From Macrostomum lignano (lineage: Eukaryota): a DNA stretch of 64,000 bases. Position 1 is the stretch's first letter. Each line of letters begins with the position of its first letter. A program made the position numbers and the translations under genes. Under the pieces are notes generated by a model that was not told the DNA's origin, searched no databases, and saw nothing but the letters and a program-made list of their open reading frames with translations. The stretch spans positions 62,001-126,000 of the forward strand of contig NIVC01000001.1 in the NCBI GenBank assembly GCA_002269645.1, read 5' to 3'. Shown here piece by piece: positions 23,647 to 33,700 of this stretch.

Positions 23647-26600
23647 TCAGCTGAAATTGTTGCGCTGAAAGTGCGGCGCCGCCGGCTCGACCTCCGTGAT
23701 GCCTCCGCCGCCTCCGCTTCTGGCAGATTGGCCCGACCGCCTGGGGCCTACAAAAGTGACGGAGCCCTCATTGTTTGCACCATCGAATTCGTCGACGTCT
23801 TGTTGTTGCTGTTCGGAGAAGTCCCGGTTAGACGCCGGCGGGGGCGGCGGCGACGGACCCGAAGCCGCGGAGACGTTGCTGTCGTCTCTGGTCAAGCCGG
23901 CAACCACGATGGCGATGTCCTGGAGCATGCGGTGGATGCCGAGCAGCTCGGATCGGGTGCTGGATTCCAGTTTCTCAAGCCGAGCCTGCATTCTCAGCGC
24001 AGCTCTCTGCAGAGAGCGGACAATTTGATTGAGCAATACTGAGTGTAGTTGTGGCTCAACAGCCAAACTGTGGGTCAAGCTTAGCTAATATATTCAATGG
24101 ATACCACCAAAACTTCATCTAAAAAAGGACCTCCGTGATTCCAAGGGTCTGTAGGCTAGGATAAGTATCCAGTATCAAAGTGTCGACATCATGAGCATAG
24201 TTACTCGTGGTTTGGCTATTCAGTTTGAATTAGTAGGGGATTGTAGCCTAGTGGTTAGAGCGTCGGACTCACGACTGAAAGGTCAGGGGTTCGATTCTCG
24301 ACCCATGAGGAACAACATGTGTCCTTTAGCAAGACACTTAATTCTACATTGCTTCAGTTCACCCAGCTGTCAAGTGGGTGCCAGCATTAGCTGGGGTAAT
24401 TGAGGGTGCGTGTGGTGACCCCCCAGTCCTTGGACTCAACAGTCCAATAGCTGGGGATGAGCTGTCGGCTGCACATCTGCCGAATAGGGCAGGTGCAATA
24501 AAAATTGAATTTATGTACACGTCTTATCAGTTTAAATCCATTAACTTTTGATTTTTACTGGCAAGACACTTATAATAAAAGTGCGCTCAAACCCCTCACC
24601 TCCGCCATCTGACGAGTCTTTGTTTTGCGTTTCCTCTGCTGTCTCCTGGCTTCGCTCTCGTCGACGACAAGGTCGTTCTCGTCCGAGTCAGACTGCTCAA
24701 TCTCCCTTTCGTACAGGCGAGTGACTCTTTTTTGAATCTTTTTGACCATATCCTGCGGTTTCGAGAAAGGCTTTTTTTGTACTTCGTTGCAACTGCGAGC
24801 CAACTCAGTGATAAAAACTCTGCCCCCATTGTGAGAAGTGACAGAAACGGCAATGACTGAGAGAGCTCGATTTAAGTCAATGGCTATTGCTTCTAGGAAA
24901 ACTTGATTTTCTGAATCAACTTGAACTTTGGAGAATGAAAATAAGCGTGCTGAGTTCTCTTCGCGATGATCCCAGTTTCTATAGAGACTTGATGCGAGTG
25001 TAAAACTGTCAGCCTTGACAAATCAAGCAATGACTCACCCGAACTTCCAGAGTCGCCTTCTGCTGCTCCTCGACAGAGCTGCTCATTGTCACGTCGTCGT
25101 CGTAATGCAGCTTGAGTGGGTTGCATTCCTCTTTCAAATATTTGTGAAACTTCACCCGTTGAGACTTGCGCATTGATTCGTAGCAGTTGAGCAGAGTGAT
25201 CGCCTTCTGCATTGCGGCAGCCGGTTTGGCATTGTCGAATACGCTGTTTTGGCCGAAGATAAGTGAAATCAGAAGTCAGTGTGATGATAGTACATATATT
25301 TGAAAATGTCAACTTACGACTTGAACGTCTCCGACAATTGAGCAATGAACAGGTTGAGAAACAGAATGGCCGAGATGGCGAACCAGCAGCCGAGTATGAT
25401 TTGGGACGTGATCGGATCGATGTCCGCCATTTGCTGCAAGATTTATTGTTTCATAGATTTAATCTGCTGAGGTTGAATACTGTAATAGATTATTGGTTTG
25501 CGTTTAGAACCTCACTAAACCTCCCTTTCGCCCGGATTGATCGTGTTTTAATCTATGGGAATTTGCATAATATCTGTTCCAGAGACTCATATCTTTCTCA
25601 GTCTCTCGAAAGAGACCGCCCCCCTCATTCAATCAGAGCAGCAGGCAGGAACGGGAGTGATTTGCTCTCCTAAAATAATAATAATTGATTACACCTTCCC
25701 TAATGAGTAGTTGGTTGTGCAACCGACAGCTCAGCCGCAGCTGTTGCGCGGCGCATCTGAAGGGTGTTCAGTCCAAGGACTGGGAGGGTCGCCACACACA
25801 GCCTCAATTACCCCAGCTAATACTGGCACCAATTTTACAGCTGGGTGAATTGAAGCAATGCAGAGTTAAGTGTCCTGCTCAATCTGAAGTTGTGAGTCCG
25901 ACCGACCACTAGGCTAAAACCCCACTAGTATATAAATAATGCTCACGTCGTATTGATATTCATCAACGAGAGTCAGGCGGAACATCGAGAACGCGGTGCT
26001 GTAGAACGTTTCCATGTTCTCCACGGTGACCCGTTTGAAATTGTGCATGCTGTAGTTTTTCAGCGTCTTGGATGTCAAAATGTCGGCCTCTCGGAGGTTC
26101 TTATCGCCGCCAAGTATGGTCCAGAATATGCAGGCTGCGGGGGTGAGTCATTCGAGTTGGTCTGTTAGTCAACGGCAACACTCTATACAGCACACTGTTA
26201 AACATCTTTTAAAGTTCTGAAAGGACATCGGACTGCAGGACTGATCTCACTGCACGAAACACAGCCCAGGCAAACCCTCATTCATTCTTATGCTCCAATT
26301 GGGCAGATATGCAACCGACAGCTCAGCCGCAGCTATTGCGCGACGCATCTGAAGGCTGCGTACGGCTGTTCAGTCCAAGGACTGGGGGTCGCTGCACACA
26401 CCCTCAATTACCCCAGTTAATGCTGGCACCCATTTTACAGCAATGACTACTTAAGAAGAAGAAGAAGAAAAAGTGACTTCAGTGGTCCTTGTTTTACAGC
26501 TGGGTGAACTGAAGCAATGCAGAGTTAAGTGCATTGCTCAAGGGCACAAATTGTTCCAGCGGGATCGGGAATCGAACCCCCGACCTTCAAGTCGTGAGTC

Positions 26601-27559
26601 CGACGCCCATAACGGTCGAACCACTAGGCTACGCCCCCACTTCATTATTCATTCATTCTTCAAGCATACAGAAACTCCCGCTTCGGTAAGTTTACACGGA
26701 CGAGCGCCACTGATATCTCATATTTAAGAAAGCACGAACTCTCCGCGAAAGCAAATGATCAAAAACTGAGAATTCACTCACTGAACGGAATGAAGAACTC
26801 AAGGTAGAGCAGGAAAAACTTGGCCAAATCGCCCAGAATCATGCCCAGCATCACAATAAACGGGCCGAAAAACTCGAACGGTTTCACGTACTTCAGCAGC
26901 CGGATCCACAGAACAACAATGTTAAGCGCCATGATTCGGACGTGCCAGCGGGCCAACACGAGATTCCCTTCGCCGCCTGGCCAGAGAAATTCAGCGAAGT
27001 GCGAGATCAGCGAGGCCAGCAGGATGATGTAGCAGGCCCAGTCCAGGTAGTTCCACCAATCGTCAAAGTAGGAAATCAGCGACTTCTTGATTTCATCAAC
27101 CTCTTTGCGCAGGTATTTGCCCTCGTCATCGTGGCTCGGATGAACCAACTCCAAATCCTCTTCGATCAGCTTCAATTTCCACGTTTTCCAGGCCTGAAAG
27201 TGCGTGACACGGTAGCAAGCACTACACTCCCAGCAGGCAGCCACCTCACTCCCAGCAGGCAGCCACCTCACTCCCAGCAGGCAGCCACCTCACTCCCAGC
27301 AGGCAGCCACCTCACTCCCAGCAGGCAGCCACCTCACTCCCACCAGAAAGCCACCTCACTCCCAGCAGGCAGCCACCTCACTCCCAGCAGGCAGCCACCT
27401 CACTCCCAGCAGGCAGCCACCTCACTCCCAGCAGGCAGCCACCTCACTACTAAGGGCCGGCAGATACACACAATGTAGCGCATAGACATAATTGTACGCA
27501 TAAATGTACGCAATTTCCGGTATATAGGACCAAATGCACGCAAATGTACACAATGTACA

Positions 27560-27594
<35 letters not shown>

Positions 27595-27679
27595 AGGCGC
27601 ATCCTGCAGCGCATCCTGCAGCACCGATCGCCGCAGGCGATGGCGCCATCGGCAGGAAGCTCTTGCTGTGAATACGCCT

Positions 27680-27716
<37 letters not shown>

Positions 27717-30700
27717 TGTACATTGTGTACATTTGCGTACATTTGGTCCTATATACCGGAAATTGCGAAATTGCGTAAAAAGGATGCGTACATTTATGCG
27801 TACAATTATGTCTATGCGCTACATTGTGTGTAGTTCGTTGCCCTGCGTTTGTAAATACAGTTTAGCCCGTGCACTGCATTGATGCCTACTTTTGTGTTAG
27901 GTACCTGCTTTTTATTAAATACACTGCACCAAAAGCAACTTTAATCGGTACATACTGTGTTTTTGTAGAGGTGCCGGTATGCTTTTTAATACATATGTCT
28001 TTAGTGTAATTTGGTGTGCTTCTTCAACTTGGCTCGCGAATCTTGCACTATGGCTCTCTAGTGGAAAGTACTCTTACTTGTGCTGGTTGCGGGTGATTTT
28101 AAGGCTTTCTGCTTGACTTCTTTAGTTTACTTGATGGTTAAATGAGGAGTGGGAGCTGACGCGCCTACCTCGGGGGGAGGAATGCAGCCCCGCGGTCTGA
28201 TGCAGCGCTTTCTGTTACCCCTCTCCGTCCGCACTGTACTTGGTCTCCGCTAGGATCACCCCTTGGGGTTAAGAGTGGGCGGGTCCTTTGTACTCGACCC
28301 TGGGTTAAAAACTCACATTTGGAGGCTCTGGGGAGAGTTGCAGTGGAGTTCAACAAATTTCTGATAAGATCTCTTGCGGGGGCATGACACTCGTCTCGAA
28401 ATAATAAAAACCTGAACAAGTGCTGGATGCCCTTACTAGTTGGCGGGTTGTTACCTCTACAATTGTGTACTATTTCTGTCAATATTTTCCCCTGCATTAT
28501 GTCAATATGTGCTACAGGGTGTCATAATATGATACTTTTACGCACTAATATGTACACTCGTATCATAATTTTCCTGCATTGTGTCTGCTTCTACATCTAC
28601 GATGTGTGTATTTTAACCTATCCCCCGATATATAATATGTGCCCGCGATGTGTGGTAATATGCCGAAATGTACATGTACAAAATCAATAGTGTGTATATA
28701 CGTCTGCATCGTTTTTGTCTATGTTTTAATAATATACACCTGCATTATACTGGCTTTCCATATGAGTGGCAACTCCTTTGTAACCTACAATTCGTTGGCT
28801 CAGTGTTAGTGGTATTTTGTAATTAAATTACTACGTCTAAATGTTGTATTATTATTGAATTCAATTATTATTGAATTTCACTCCTCATGTGCTAGGGAGG
28901 TCTAATTGTAATATAATCTTGCTATTAATCTACCATCTCTACTGTAAGTAGACTGTGACTTAGTGTCTGGGCTCGAGTTGTGTACTCTTTGTATGAATGC
29001 ATTCTTGGTGTGTAACTCCTGACCATCCCTTCCCTCTGGGAGCACTGCAGGTAGACTAGTATGGCTTGGTATTCAGGGCTGGCGTGTGCACGTAATACTC
29101 TGTAATATTTACCGGACTCGGGTGGGGAAGCTCGCTGTACGGCTCTCTCCGTGGGGTGTGATTCACCGCCTCTCTGTCCCGCGCCTCCTGCCAGGGCAGC
29201 TCTCTGTCCCTCCGCGGGGGTGACTTACACACTGCCTCTCTGTCCCGCGCCGCGTGCTGCGACATGCCGGGTAGCGTCCTCTATCTCCTACTGCCTCCAC
29301 GCACTCTCTGTCCCCCTCCTGCTACAGGAGGGCTGGTTGCTCGCTGTACAGGGCAGCGTCAGCATCTGGGTTTCCTTCCTGCACCGTCTACCCCACCACT
29401 ATACTGACTAACCGCATGCACACGACATTGGTGGGAGGGGCGGAGTTCCCCACTGACGGGTGTACACCTACTCGACGCTGAAGGTACACTTGCTGAAAGC
29501 CCACCTTGTCAGATGTACACTTGCTGAACACCCATCCTGTCAGATGTACACTCGCTGGACGCCCACCCTGCCGGATGTACACCCCGGGTGACTAATTCGC
29601 TTACTTTTCTATTAAAATACTTGCCATTTATTATGTCTGCTTTTTATTCAATTTTATATGGTTTGAAGGTTTATTTTGCTGTAATACCTAGTTTCTTATA
29701 AAAATCTACTCTCGACGATGGTTGTATTGGCTATTTCATTAAAATAACCTGCTTTTGAATAAAACGTTGTATTTAAGCCTCCAGTTTTTTTTCAAAATTA
29801 TAATGGAAACCCTCCCGACACCCCTGGAACCTCCTCGAGCAGCTTACATAGAGCTTGCAGACCCTCGAAACCCCTCTAGTGTGCCCTGATTTCAGCGGTC
29901 TAGAGGTTAACATCTGAATTTTTACACTATATTTTCCTTACATACAGCAATACAGGAGGGTTTGGAAGAGTGAGTCTGGCGGGAGAGGGGGCTTGTGGGA
30001 TGATGAGGATGTGTTCACTGTTTAGCAGTTTTAGCCTACCTTTTGGGCTAATATGCTTACTATTATTACTACTATTATACCTACTATGTACATACTATTA
30101 TACTACCCACTATTAAATATGCGGCACTAAAACCAACTTTTGATAATACATAGCGTGTTTTGGTGGATTCTCCCTCACGTCTCTGTCCCTACACATGTGC
30201 TTTTTAGTATTCTCTGTTTGTGTACCTCTCTGTAACGTCTCTGTACGCTCAGACTGGTTTCTCCGTCCCCGCGCGCGCCTCTACTAAAGTTTGCGGTTAC
30301 CTACCCCTACACACTGCTCTCTGTCTCCCTCCGCGCACACCTCTCTGCCCTTGCATGCAACTTGCATGTCTACTCCCCTGTCCTGCCCTCGCGTGGGTCC
30401 CTGTCTATACATAGCTACCAGACCCTACCTCTCTCTGTGCCTTGCTCGCAACTCTGTCCCAGGCCCCCCTTCATACTTCTCTGTCCCGGGCTGCAACTGG
30501 CTGACACGCGCCTCTCTGTTCCCCAGCCTGCGTGGCTGCCTACCCCTGCACACTGCTCTCTGTCCCCCTCCGCGCCTCTCTATCATCCTATTCCTGCAGC
30601 TGACCGTGCCGTTCAGCTCTGTCCACGCACGGCTCCACCCCTGCCCGTGTCTCACTGTACCGCCCTGTGTGGCTCTCTTACCCTGCGCGTTTGCTCCCCA

Positions 30701-33700
30701 TCTCCCTCCTGCTCCATATGTTTCTGTTCCCTCACACTACGCACACGTGGCTGGCTCTCTGTCCAAACACATCTCTGCTCCTCCACTCTATCCTCGCGTG
30801 GCCCCTTGACGGTTCGCATGCCCCTGCATACCCTGCCTGCCTCTCTGTCCCCTGCAACTGGGGAGGGAGCTCTCTATCCTCTGTATGGCTTTCTCTGTGG
30901 GGTGTGTGTGACTCACACTACCTCTCTGTCCTAGCATGCGCCTCTCTATCCGGCTCCTGTAGCAGGCTGTGTTGTTCACATCTCTTTCCACCCACCCTCT
31001 GCCCGTACACGCTCAGTGTACAGGGCTGCGTCAGCATCGGGGTTAAAACTTCTCGCTCCCTATGCTTCAACAGTATAACAACCTAGTGGCTGGTTCTCTG
31101 TCCACCCACCCCTCTCTGCCCGTACACTCTCACTGTACAGGGCTGCGTCAGCGTTAGGGTTGAAACTTCTCGCTCCCTATACCCCACAACCGTGTAGTGT
31201 CCTAGTATGGGCGCGACCTGGGTTCGATTTCGCTAGTTGAGATGTAGGTGAGAGAGGGGAAGAGGCCCGTATCGATGACTACATATCGGTGTACACACAT
31301 ATCGGGAGAGTGTACACTCGGGGCGCCTGCTGCATACATATCGGTGTACATATAGGGAGAGTGCGCATACATATCGGGAGGGGCGCCTGAGGTGGGGAGG
31401 GCGCCTGCGGCATACATGTCGGGGGAGGGCGCGTGCGGCGGGGAGGGGCGCCTGCGGCATGGACGCCTGCTGCTCTGGAGGGTGCGCTTGGGATCTGATT
31501 GATTTGGGATCTGATTGATTTGGGATCTGATTGATTTATTGGGATCTAATATCGGTAGGTGCGCCTGCGGCTGGGGAGGGTCGCCTGCGGCTGGACGGCG
31601 CTTGGCGCCACGCGCCTACGGCGCGCGCGCGCCGAGCGCCGATATCGATACGGGTATCGATCACCTAGTGATCGGGGCGCCAGCCAATGAGAGGCGAGGA
31701 GGGTTGACACCCACCCCACCTCCAAAATCAACCCATCTGCCGGCCCTTAGTAGTCACCTCACTCCCAGCAGACAGCCACCTCACTCCCAGCAGACAGCCA
31801 CCTCACTCCCAGCAGACAGCCACCTCACTCCCAGCAGGCAGCCACCTCACTCCCAGCAGGCAGCCACCTCACTCCCAGCAGACAGCCACCTCACTCCCAG
31901 CAGGCAGCCACCTCACTCCCAGCAGGCAGCCACCTCACTCCCAGCAGGCAGCCACCTCACTCCCAGCAGGCAGCCACCTCACTCCCAGCAGACAGCCACC
32001 TCACTCCCAGCAGGCAGCCACCTCACTCCCAGCAGACAGCCACCTCACTCCCAGCAGACAGCCACCTCACTCCCAGCAGGCAGCCACCTCACTCCCACCA
32101 GAAAGCCACCTCACTCCCAGCAGACAGCCACCTCACTCCCAGCAGGCAGCCACCTCACTCCCACCAGAAAGCCACCTCACTCCCAGCAGGCAGCCACCTC
32201 ACTCCCAGCAGGCAGCCACCTCACTCCCAGCAGGCAGCCACCTCACTCCCACCAGAAAGCCACCTCACTTCATAAAGCATTCCTATATAAGGCTTGACTG
32301 ACTCACCTCGTGGCGTCGACGAGACCGAACGATTTCCCTGATCTCTTCAATAATCAGGCAGGCCGTAATTACAATGGCTCCAATCTGGAAAGATGTCAAA
32401 GTAATAGAAATTAATGAGGAATTTATTAACAAACAAAGGTTTAAACTGCATGACGCACCAGGACGGCCACTCGATATCCTTCCCGAGGAAAGTCGTATTC
32501 ATGCCGCTGAGTCCACTCTTTGTCCACGGCGAATATTGTCCAGAGTATGATGTTGATCAGTTGGAGAATAATCTGGCCAATGGCTCGGATTCTAAAGGTG
32601 AGAATTGTAGTTTTTTATATGATTTCAGATTTGAAAAGTTTATCAGTCAAGCACAGTCGAAGCCACGCATACGGTGGCAAGACACTGCGAATTGGGTTGG
32701 GCCATTCGTCTCAAGGTCTGTGTACTGGGTTTGGGCCATCCGACTCAAGGACTGTGTACTGGGTTGGGCCATCCGACTCAAGGACTGTGTACTGGGTTGG
32801 GCCATCCGACTCAAGGACTGTGTACTGGGTTTGGGCCATCCGCTTCAAGGTCTGTGTACTGGGTTTAGGCCATCCGCTTCAAGACTGTGTACTGGGTTAG
32901 GCCATCCGACTCAAGGACTGTGTACTGGGTTGGGCCATCCGCTTCAAGGACTGTGTACTGGGTTGGGCCATCCGCTTCAAGGACTGTGTACTGGGTTGGG
33001 CCATCCGACTTAAGGACTGTGTACTGGGTTGGGCCATCCGACTCAAGGACTGTGTACTGGGTTTGGGCCATCCGACTCAAGGACTGTGTACTGGGTTTGG
33101 GCCATCCGACTCAAGGACTGTGTACTGGGTTGGGCCATCCGCTTCAAGGACTGTGTACTGGGTTGGGCCATCCGACTCAAGGTCTGTGTACTGGGTTGGG
33201 CCATCCGCTTCAAGGACTGTGTACTGGGTTGGGCCATCCGACTCAAGGACTGTGTACTGGGTTGGGCCATCCGCTTCAAGGACTGTGTACTGGATTGGGC
33301 CATCCGACTCAAGGTCTGTGTACTGGGTTGGGCCATCCGACTCAAGGACTGTGTATACATGTAACTGGGTTGGGCCATCCGCTTTAAGGATTGTGTACTG
33401 GGTTGGGCCACCCGGCTCAAGGACTGTGTATAAACTGGGTTGGGCCATCCGCTTCAAGGACTGGGTACTGGGTTGTGGGCCATCCGTCTCAAAACCAATG
33501 AAAGCATAAGCAAAGCAGTGGTAGCGGGTTAACCAGGTTAAAAAACAAGTTAAATTGTCTGCAAAAATGTTAACAATAAAACAAACGCATCGATATTTGC
33601 AAACAGAAACCAATAGCATTAAGGCTTATGCATTCGTTCAAGCAAAAATATAAAAATGTCTTATCATGATTATAAAGCAAATGTGAGAACCATTTTCCAA

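Follow-up and report, generated by a model that had tools for sequence, protein, structure and literature searches.

A one-armed copy of a gene-less palindromic element, probably a satellite of a Polinton split in two, in Macrostomum lignano

Introduction

The closest described relatives of the element reported here are the Polintons or Mavericks, together with the adintoviruses. In the available parts of the sources consulted (PMC8097293, 10.1101/2023.08.22.554363, PMC8502044, PMC6431247), these elements have a 6-bp target site duplication (TSD), an end motif of short repeats and terminal inverted repeats (TIRs), and a single element of 13-25 kb carries the polymerase pPolB, an rve integrase, a double-jelly-roll capsid protein and a packaging ATPase. 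The end motifs given in the accessible text of the vertebrate survey are (AGT)2, (AG)3 and (AC)3A (PMC8097293). Two other systems are similar in part. The snap-back defective genomes of AAV are described in excerpts of PMC8235507 as self-complementary, helper-dependent and nicked by Rep. The Bidnaviridae, as far as the available text of PMC4061559 and PMC8502044 goes, have ssDNA in two segments with matching termini, parvovirus-like capsids and a Polinton-derived pPolB, and the polymerase and the capsid lie on one segment.

The element lies in a window of 64,000 nucleotides of the M. lignano assembly (contig NIVC01000001.1, positions 62,001 to 126,000, forward strand). It shares with Polintons the 6-bp TSD and the short-repeat end, here 5'-(ACT)2//(AGT)2-3', a variant outside the three of that survey, and has neither a TIR of 100-1500 bp nor pPolB and integrase together, as an autonomous Polinton would. 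Unlike Polintons, it has no genes, the putative helper genes are distributed over two elements of ~10 kb, and nucleotides (nt) 7-26 of the ends are hypervariable. It consists of one arm and the central hairpin of a larger palindrome and is very probably a snap-back satellite that would be copied and integrated in trans by a bipartite Polinton. Literature searches, with Repbase, subscription papers and supplements outside their scope and many texts accessible in part, returned no description of a two-part Polinton, of Polinton satellites that are palindromes or of hypervariability at Polinton ends.

The element in the window and its host site

The element is 4,309 bp long (27446-31754). The 20-mer ACTACTAAGGGCCGGCAGAT occurs in the window only at 27446 (plus strand) and 31754 (minus strand), and 100 shuffles gave 0 matches, in agreement with the perfect 20-bp TIRs of the initial annotation. 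CACCTC is found on both sides, at 27440-27445 and 31755-31760, within a 22-bp minisatellite; this TSD, originally deduced from the phase of the repeat, is now backed by related elements. A 9-bp TSD (CACCTCACT) was considered and rejected, since the relatives have 6 bp. The longest ATG ORF is 147 aa and a transposase is absent, as had been noted. Both ends had been called structured. This holds for the left end, where ~370 bp form a strong hairpin (z=-24.7); the structure at the right end is not significant (z=-1.7). Three public runs, assigned to RNA by guess, cover the arm and contain no GT..AG joint. The features are as follows.

27440..27445, plus strand: left TSD copy, CACCTC; 6-bp TSD in 40 of 43 related pairs
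27446..31754, no strand: whole element, 4,309 bp, with a single arm, probably derived from a gene-less palindromic Polinton satellite; 98.3% to the C816 copy over 3.7 kb
27446..27465, plus strand: left terminus, of which nt 1-20 alone are left, fused to the hairpin arm at nt 19/20 with one T shared
27465..27832, no strand: hairpin at the centre of the parent palindrome, its stem containing (CA)n/(TG)n tracts
27600..27674, no strand: asymmetric 75-nt core at the palindrome axis, source of a 31-mer that is matched 50 times in the assembly
27833..31734, no strand: the non-coding arm that was kept; 14 RCAGAGAG motifs, all on the same strand
29163..29591, minus strand: internal stretch, 70-76% like nt ~100-640 of the capsid-type TIR
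29586..29588, no strand: position of a ~0.5-kb deletion that the C816 copy shares and most sisters lack
31549..31754, minus strand: subterminal TIR sequence of the polymerase type, 93-95% to the C491 and C307 ends
31729..31748, minus strand: variable zone of the right end, nt 7-26
31735..31754, minus strand: right 20-bp terminus, last bases AGTAGT-3'
31755..31760, plus strand: right TSD copy
27225..32269, no strand: host 22-bp minisatellite split by the insertion, likely an intron
26774..27190, minus strand: neighbouring host exon, part of an ion-channel gene (Pfam Ion_trans, E=5e-8), limits approximate

Two copies of the host locus, 98% identical, lack the element, and each has 10-11 uninterrupted minisatellite units. 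The insertion is therefore recent or polymorphic, and the recent mobility proposed initially is upheld. The minisatellite has ~34 units in the window (27225-32269) against 10-11 at the two empty loci (L122, L123). Upstream of the host exon, at 25786-25841 and 26386-26680, there is a repeat that we take to be SINE-like.

Relatives with the same ends

The exact terminal 20-mer has 25 matches in the assembly (control 0), so that other copies, for which a genome search had been suggested, do exist. Looser end patterns gave 305 and 62 matches; from the 305, the first 100 were listed, and 163 stretches were read. These match counts exceed the number of true insertions, since single insertion sites are represented twice or three times (C2210/C355/C5162; C1090/C986/C2787; C551/C1416), either as duplicated loci or as haplotypes. 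A perfect 6-bp TSD flanks 40 of the 43 relatives with two ends, and 7 bp are found in none. The same 6-bp TSD was present in 19 of 21 further end pairs, one of the two misses being an end slip. ACTACT ends and 6-bp TSDs are common to three types of element: A with a polymerase, B with capsid and integrase, and the gene-less palindrome C.

Three candidates for further coding segments (C558:43471, C56:643541 and C102) were excluded as rearranged derivatives with inserted repeats. The sequence at C56:643541-661960 (L142, L143) is an 18.4-kb hybrid derivative with capsid-type-like ends, pieces of the satellite arm and the centre core. Mariner-like transposase ORFs occur within or beside end-bearing derivatives (L067:1117-2130; L077:4959-6134).

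The two coding types

Type A is 8.8-10.1 kb long and encodes pPolB (Pfam DNA_pol_B_2), beside which it has at most two unknown ORFs. Type B is about 9.8-10.5 kb long (13.9 kb with insertions) and encodes an rve integrase (Pfam), a double-jelly-roll capsid protein and an ATPase whose homologues carry PF04665; two more ORFs are presumably the protease and the minor capsid protein, by motif and position. The structure model of the capsid protein (pLDDT 80) matches the major capsid proteins of PBCV-1, Sputnik and mavirus with E of about 1e-15 to 1e-17. Pfam gave no family for the ATPase, protease-like, capsid and minor-capsid-like ORFs of type B or for two type A ORFs, PHROGs gave none for eight ORFs, including the two unknown ones of type A, and a PDB sequence search with the protease-like ORF found nothing. 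The TIRs of the coding relatives measure 0.44-1.4 kb.

In the elements read, the two gene sets are kept apart. Integrase, capsid and ATPase had no tblastn match in the ten type A elements read across (2.4 kb of C4 unread), pPolB had none in ten type B elements, and pPolB and integrase were not found together in any of these 20 coding relatives. The matches to pPolB (134 of 134 candidates scored) and to the capsid (98 of 451 scored) have three contigs in common, on which they lie at least 47 kb apart, as judged by eye. Complementary gene sets on separate elements with matching termini, as in a segmented virus, are thus found here, with a capsid census covering 98 of the 451 candidates. A second family, with ACTACG ends, is likewise split into polymerase and capsid types. 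The elements resemble bidnaviruses in this arrangement and differ in that they integrate and separate the polymerase from capsid and integrase, insofar as the bidnavirus sources describe it.

Pairs of ACTACT ends belong, in the coding types, to Polinton-like elements. The initial annotation had inferred a non-autonomous, Polinton-like element, and its proposed inspection of copies for Polinton genes bears this out, with pPolB on one type and integrase, capsid and ATPase on another, and with TSDs of 6 bp. The unclassified DNA transposon that it had also allowed for is set aside, since the coding types with these ends are Polinton-like.

Several details of the coding copies were noted in passing. 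The second family (B2/A2 loci L032-L041, L054-L061) has ~88% identity in the capsid and ~70% in pPolB, and its nt 7-26 are variable too. Copy-back coding copies with near-perfect arms occur at C1090 (L006/L007; 4.7 kb) and C1313 (L040/L041; 3.7 kb). The pPolB gene is spread over several ORFs in every copy read (L003, L019, L050/L051, L056/L057). A gap of ~440 bp has the same position in the two families, close to a (GT)n tract; such gaps are possibly introns. Introns were not seen in vertebrate Mavericks, according to the available text of PMC8097293. A Fic-domain gene (L010:5421-6197, E=5e-14) is present in the B1 capsid type and has no match in B2.

The gene-less palindromes

Type C has no genes and is palindromic from end to end about a single 75-nt core. 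The core 31-mer has 50 matches in the assembly, some of them in duplicated loci. Among 32 copies with both ends, again including some duplicate loci, 28 are 8.1-9.4 kb long, and the TSD is perfect in 30. The self-complementarity is 96-99.9%, mostly above 98.4%. The arm begins with TIR sequence of type A, followed by the stretch that is 70-76% like the type B TIR. The oriented RCAGAGAG motif occurs 14 times on the same strand of the window arm, four times per capsid-type TIR and four times in 57 kb of the host window. A tblastx comparison of the arm with eight coding loci, made for decayed genes, placed all of its best 30 matches in the TIRs and thus showed no such gene.

The window copy is made up of one arm, the palindrome centre, a further ~150 bp past that centre and 20 bp from the opposite end; self-complementarity is kept over 370 bp only. 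Its short TIR is peculiar to it, the TIRs of its relatives ranging from ~0.4 kb to whole-element palindromes. The analysis adds three points to the initial annotation: the 20-bp TIR is what is left of a 4.3-kb arm, the structure at the left end corresponds to the middle of a 9-kb palindrome, and the putative helper is divided between two elements. The nearest sister, C816 (98.3% over 3.7 kb), is itself broken. Another one-armed, TSD-flanked copy of 5,094 bp, C1283, has its break at about 450 nt, and other one-armed copies break elsewhere than at nt 20 or lack the end.

With ends as in the coding Polintons of the same genome and no genes of its own, the element is a non-autonomous Polinton derivative. 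Such derivatives, in Kapitonov and Jurka's account of 2006 and in Repbase, are said to be gene-less products of simple deletion that keep Polinton ends. Compared with these, the elements described here are whole-element palindromes of near-constant size with one common centre. The parent family is self-complementary over its whole genome, as snap-back genomes are, and, like those of AAV, would depend on a helper. It differs from the AAV case, as portrayed in the accessible part of PMC8235507, in that its members are presumed to be protein-primed rather than nicked by Rep, are gene-less, are integrated with a TSD and form a stable multi-copy lineage.

The variable zone at the ends

The terminal six nucleotides are invariant within a family. 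Nucleotides 7-26 differ by 35-49% between insertions in pairwise comparison, and by 40-49% when aligned. For nt 27-66 the difference is only 0-8%, a value taken from the alignment because unaligned values for nt 27 onwards of the polymerase type are inflated by indels. The variable zone is not sorted by type: over 45 insertions the difference at nt 7-26 is 0.462 within types versus 0.469 between them (permutation p=0.23). At nt 27-46 the ends group by type (0 of 1000 permutations), at nt 23-26 partly so (p=0.014), and linkage to type grows inward. The first 21 loci were left out of this test, since they had been chosen by the exact 20-mer. Excluding loci picked in that way, distinct alleles of nt 7-26 number 14 of 18 in B1, 13 of 15 in A1, 12 of 12 in C and 12 of 12 in B2. 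Nine of ten block pairs have four-gamete sets. End alleles appear to have been swapped among all three types.

The two ends of one element are identical in 29 of 43 cases. Copies on C135, C37, C41, C633, C3150 and C4635 have a perfect TSD, yet their ends differ from each other at 7-13 positions of nt 7-26, which is consistent with hybrid molecules. Slips of 3 nt are found with the TSD intact, giving (ACT)3 at one C1201 end and a single AGT at one C1329 end, as jumping-back would give. This mechanism is described for adenoviruses (PMC4974454) and expected for Mavericks (PMC8097293), in the parts of these papers that were available. The transition in phi29 ends at nt 10, according to the same part of PMC4974454, which is shorter than the 26-nt zone here.

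Proposed mechanism and alternatives

The mechanism proposed here is read from integrated copies alone. Many independent, TSD-flanked copies without genes imply mobilisation in trans, and the satellite is likely to be the parasite of a virus split in two, because its ends are common to two separate Polinton types with complementary genes. Type A would supply replication and type B integrase and capsid; type C would parasitise both. The type A pPolB would begin at the ACTACT repeat by protein priming and jumping-back; a terminal protein fused to pPolB, reported in the accessible text of PMC11161782, is predicted for it. The displaced satellite strand could fold into a 4.5-kb hairpin duplex, restoring the origin at once, which would be a replication advantage. 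The 8-9.4-kb size of the satellite, close to that of type A, would suit packaging by the type B capsid and suggests packaging selection. The type B integrase would make the 6-bp TSD. In the weakest step, short nascent chains would switch templates at initiation, producing both the mosaic nt 7-26 and the window junction at nt 20; strand exchange near the origin is the simplest account of the end shuffling.

That the window copy lost its left arm by a template switch at nt 20 is given a little less than an even chance. Its junction, at nt 19/20, lies inside the variable zone and is unique among the 25 20-mer matches; nothing thus indicates that the half-size form has moved in its own right. Donor site and 20-mer agree at only 9 of 20 positions, a level reached by 4.4% of arm positions. 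It is quite possible, if not expected, that a full 9-kb palindrome was inserted and subsequently lost its left arm by deletion within the chromosome, through palindrome instability, the family and the helper being as in the main reading. The unique junction, the many copies truncated at various places and the broken C816 sister would all agree with this. A random break in a 4.3-kb arm would, however, hit its first 26 nt in ~0.6% of cases (one event, noticed post hoc), and neither paralogous locus has a full copy. Long palindromes are hard to assemble, and inversions run into the flanks at C356 and C201, so the half-size form might also have arisen during assembly, by collapse of a full palindrome at the window locus. 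This is improbable: the assembly contains more than 25 full palindromes, each within its own flanks and TSD, and the ends and TSD in the window are clean. Contigs of four public runs, which drop rare variants, were compared with 27425-27556; none covers 27425-27464, and the three runs with cover continue as the full arm, a result that favours neither reading.

The family itself may be read in other ways. Polymerase-only, capsid-only and palindromic elements might all be defective derivatives of a complete helper that was not seen, in which case there would be no true two-part virus. The capsid census, with 98 of 451 candidates scored, leaves room for such a helper, other Polintons with 30-33% capsid identity are present in the genome as potential helpers, and rearranged derivatives are many. 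Both types are, however, numerous and near-identical, with fixed gene order and size, and the ACTACG family is split alike, which makes a hidden helper improbable. For the variable zone, it is quite possible, if less likely than not, that an old polymorphism is maintained by diversifying selection, either for host binding or in a race between helper and satellite, and is spread by ordinary end repair rather than by switching at initiation. Common blocks recur often instead of being singletons, and end repair would give the identical ends seen in most elements. Against it, integrase and polymerase are mostly 97-100% identical between copies with different end alleles, so that no element protein visibly co-varies, and crossovers fall inside a 20-nt zone of about 45% divergence. 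A MITE or foldback of a cut-and-paste transposase (hAT, CACTA, Mutator or Galileo-like) is scarcely credible. The foldback architecture and the mariner-like ORFs in or near two copies recall such elements, but these ORFs are sporadic and every coding type with ACTACT ends is Polinton-like. The hAT, CACTA and Transib elements have their own transposases and make TSDs of 8, 2-3 and 5 bp, respectively. The hAT and CACTA alternatives raised initially thus fall with the tabulated TSD lengths and with the lack of any such transposase among the end-sharing types.

The preferred reading, a snap-back satellite of a bipartite Polinton, can be extended to a two-segment integrating animal virus with a double-jelly-roll capsid and a capsid-sized palindromic satellite, in which 20-nt cassettes are exchanged by switching and the window copy is the fossil of an initiation product restarted at the hairpin. 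In this complete form it is tentative and rather unlikely.

Significance

The mechanism of Polinton replication is expected by analogy with adenoviruses and phages, in the available text of PMC8097293. The integrated copies would record that replication in 3-nt slips, copy-back and snap-back genomes, a size constraint and an end exchange confined to nt 7-26. Split Polintons would escape surveys that require both genes together, within 4-40 kb (PMC8097293) or as five proteins within 20 kb (the nematode survey), as the accessible parts of these surveys define them, and gene-less palindromes would escape such surveys entirely. The main interest lies in the three-part system and its end zone rather than in the single copy of the window. 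Together they would offer a natural system for the study of helper-satellite conflict in an animal and of the origin of segmented DNA viruses.
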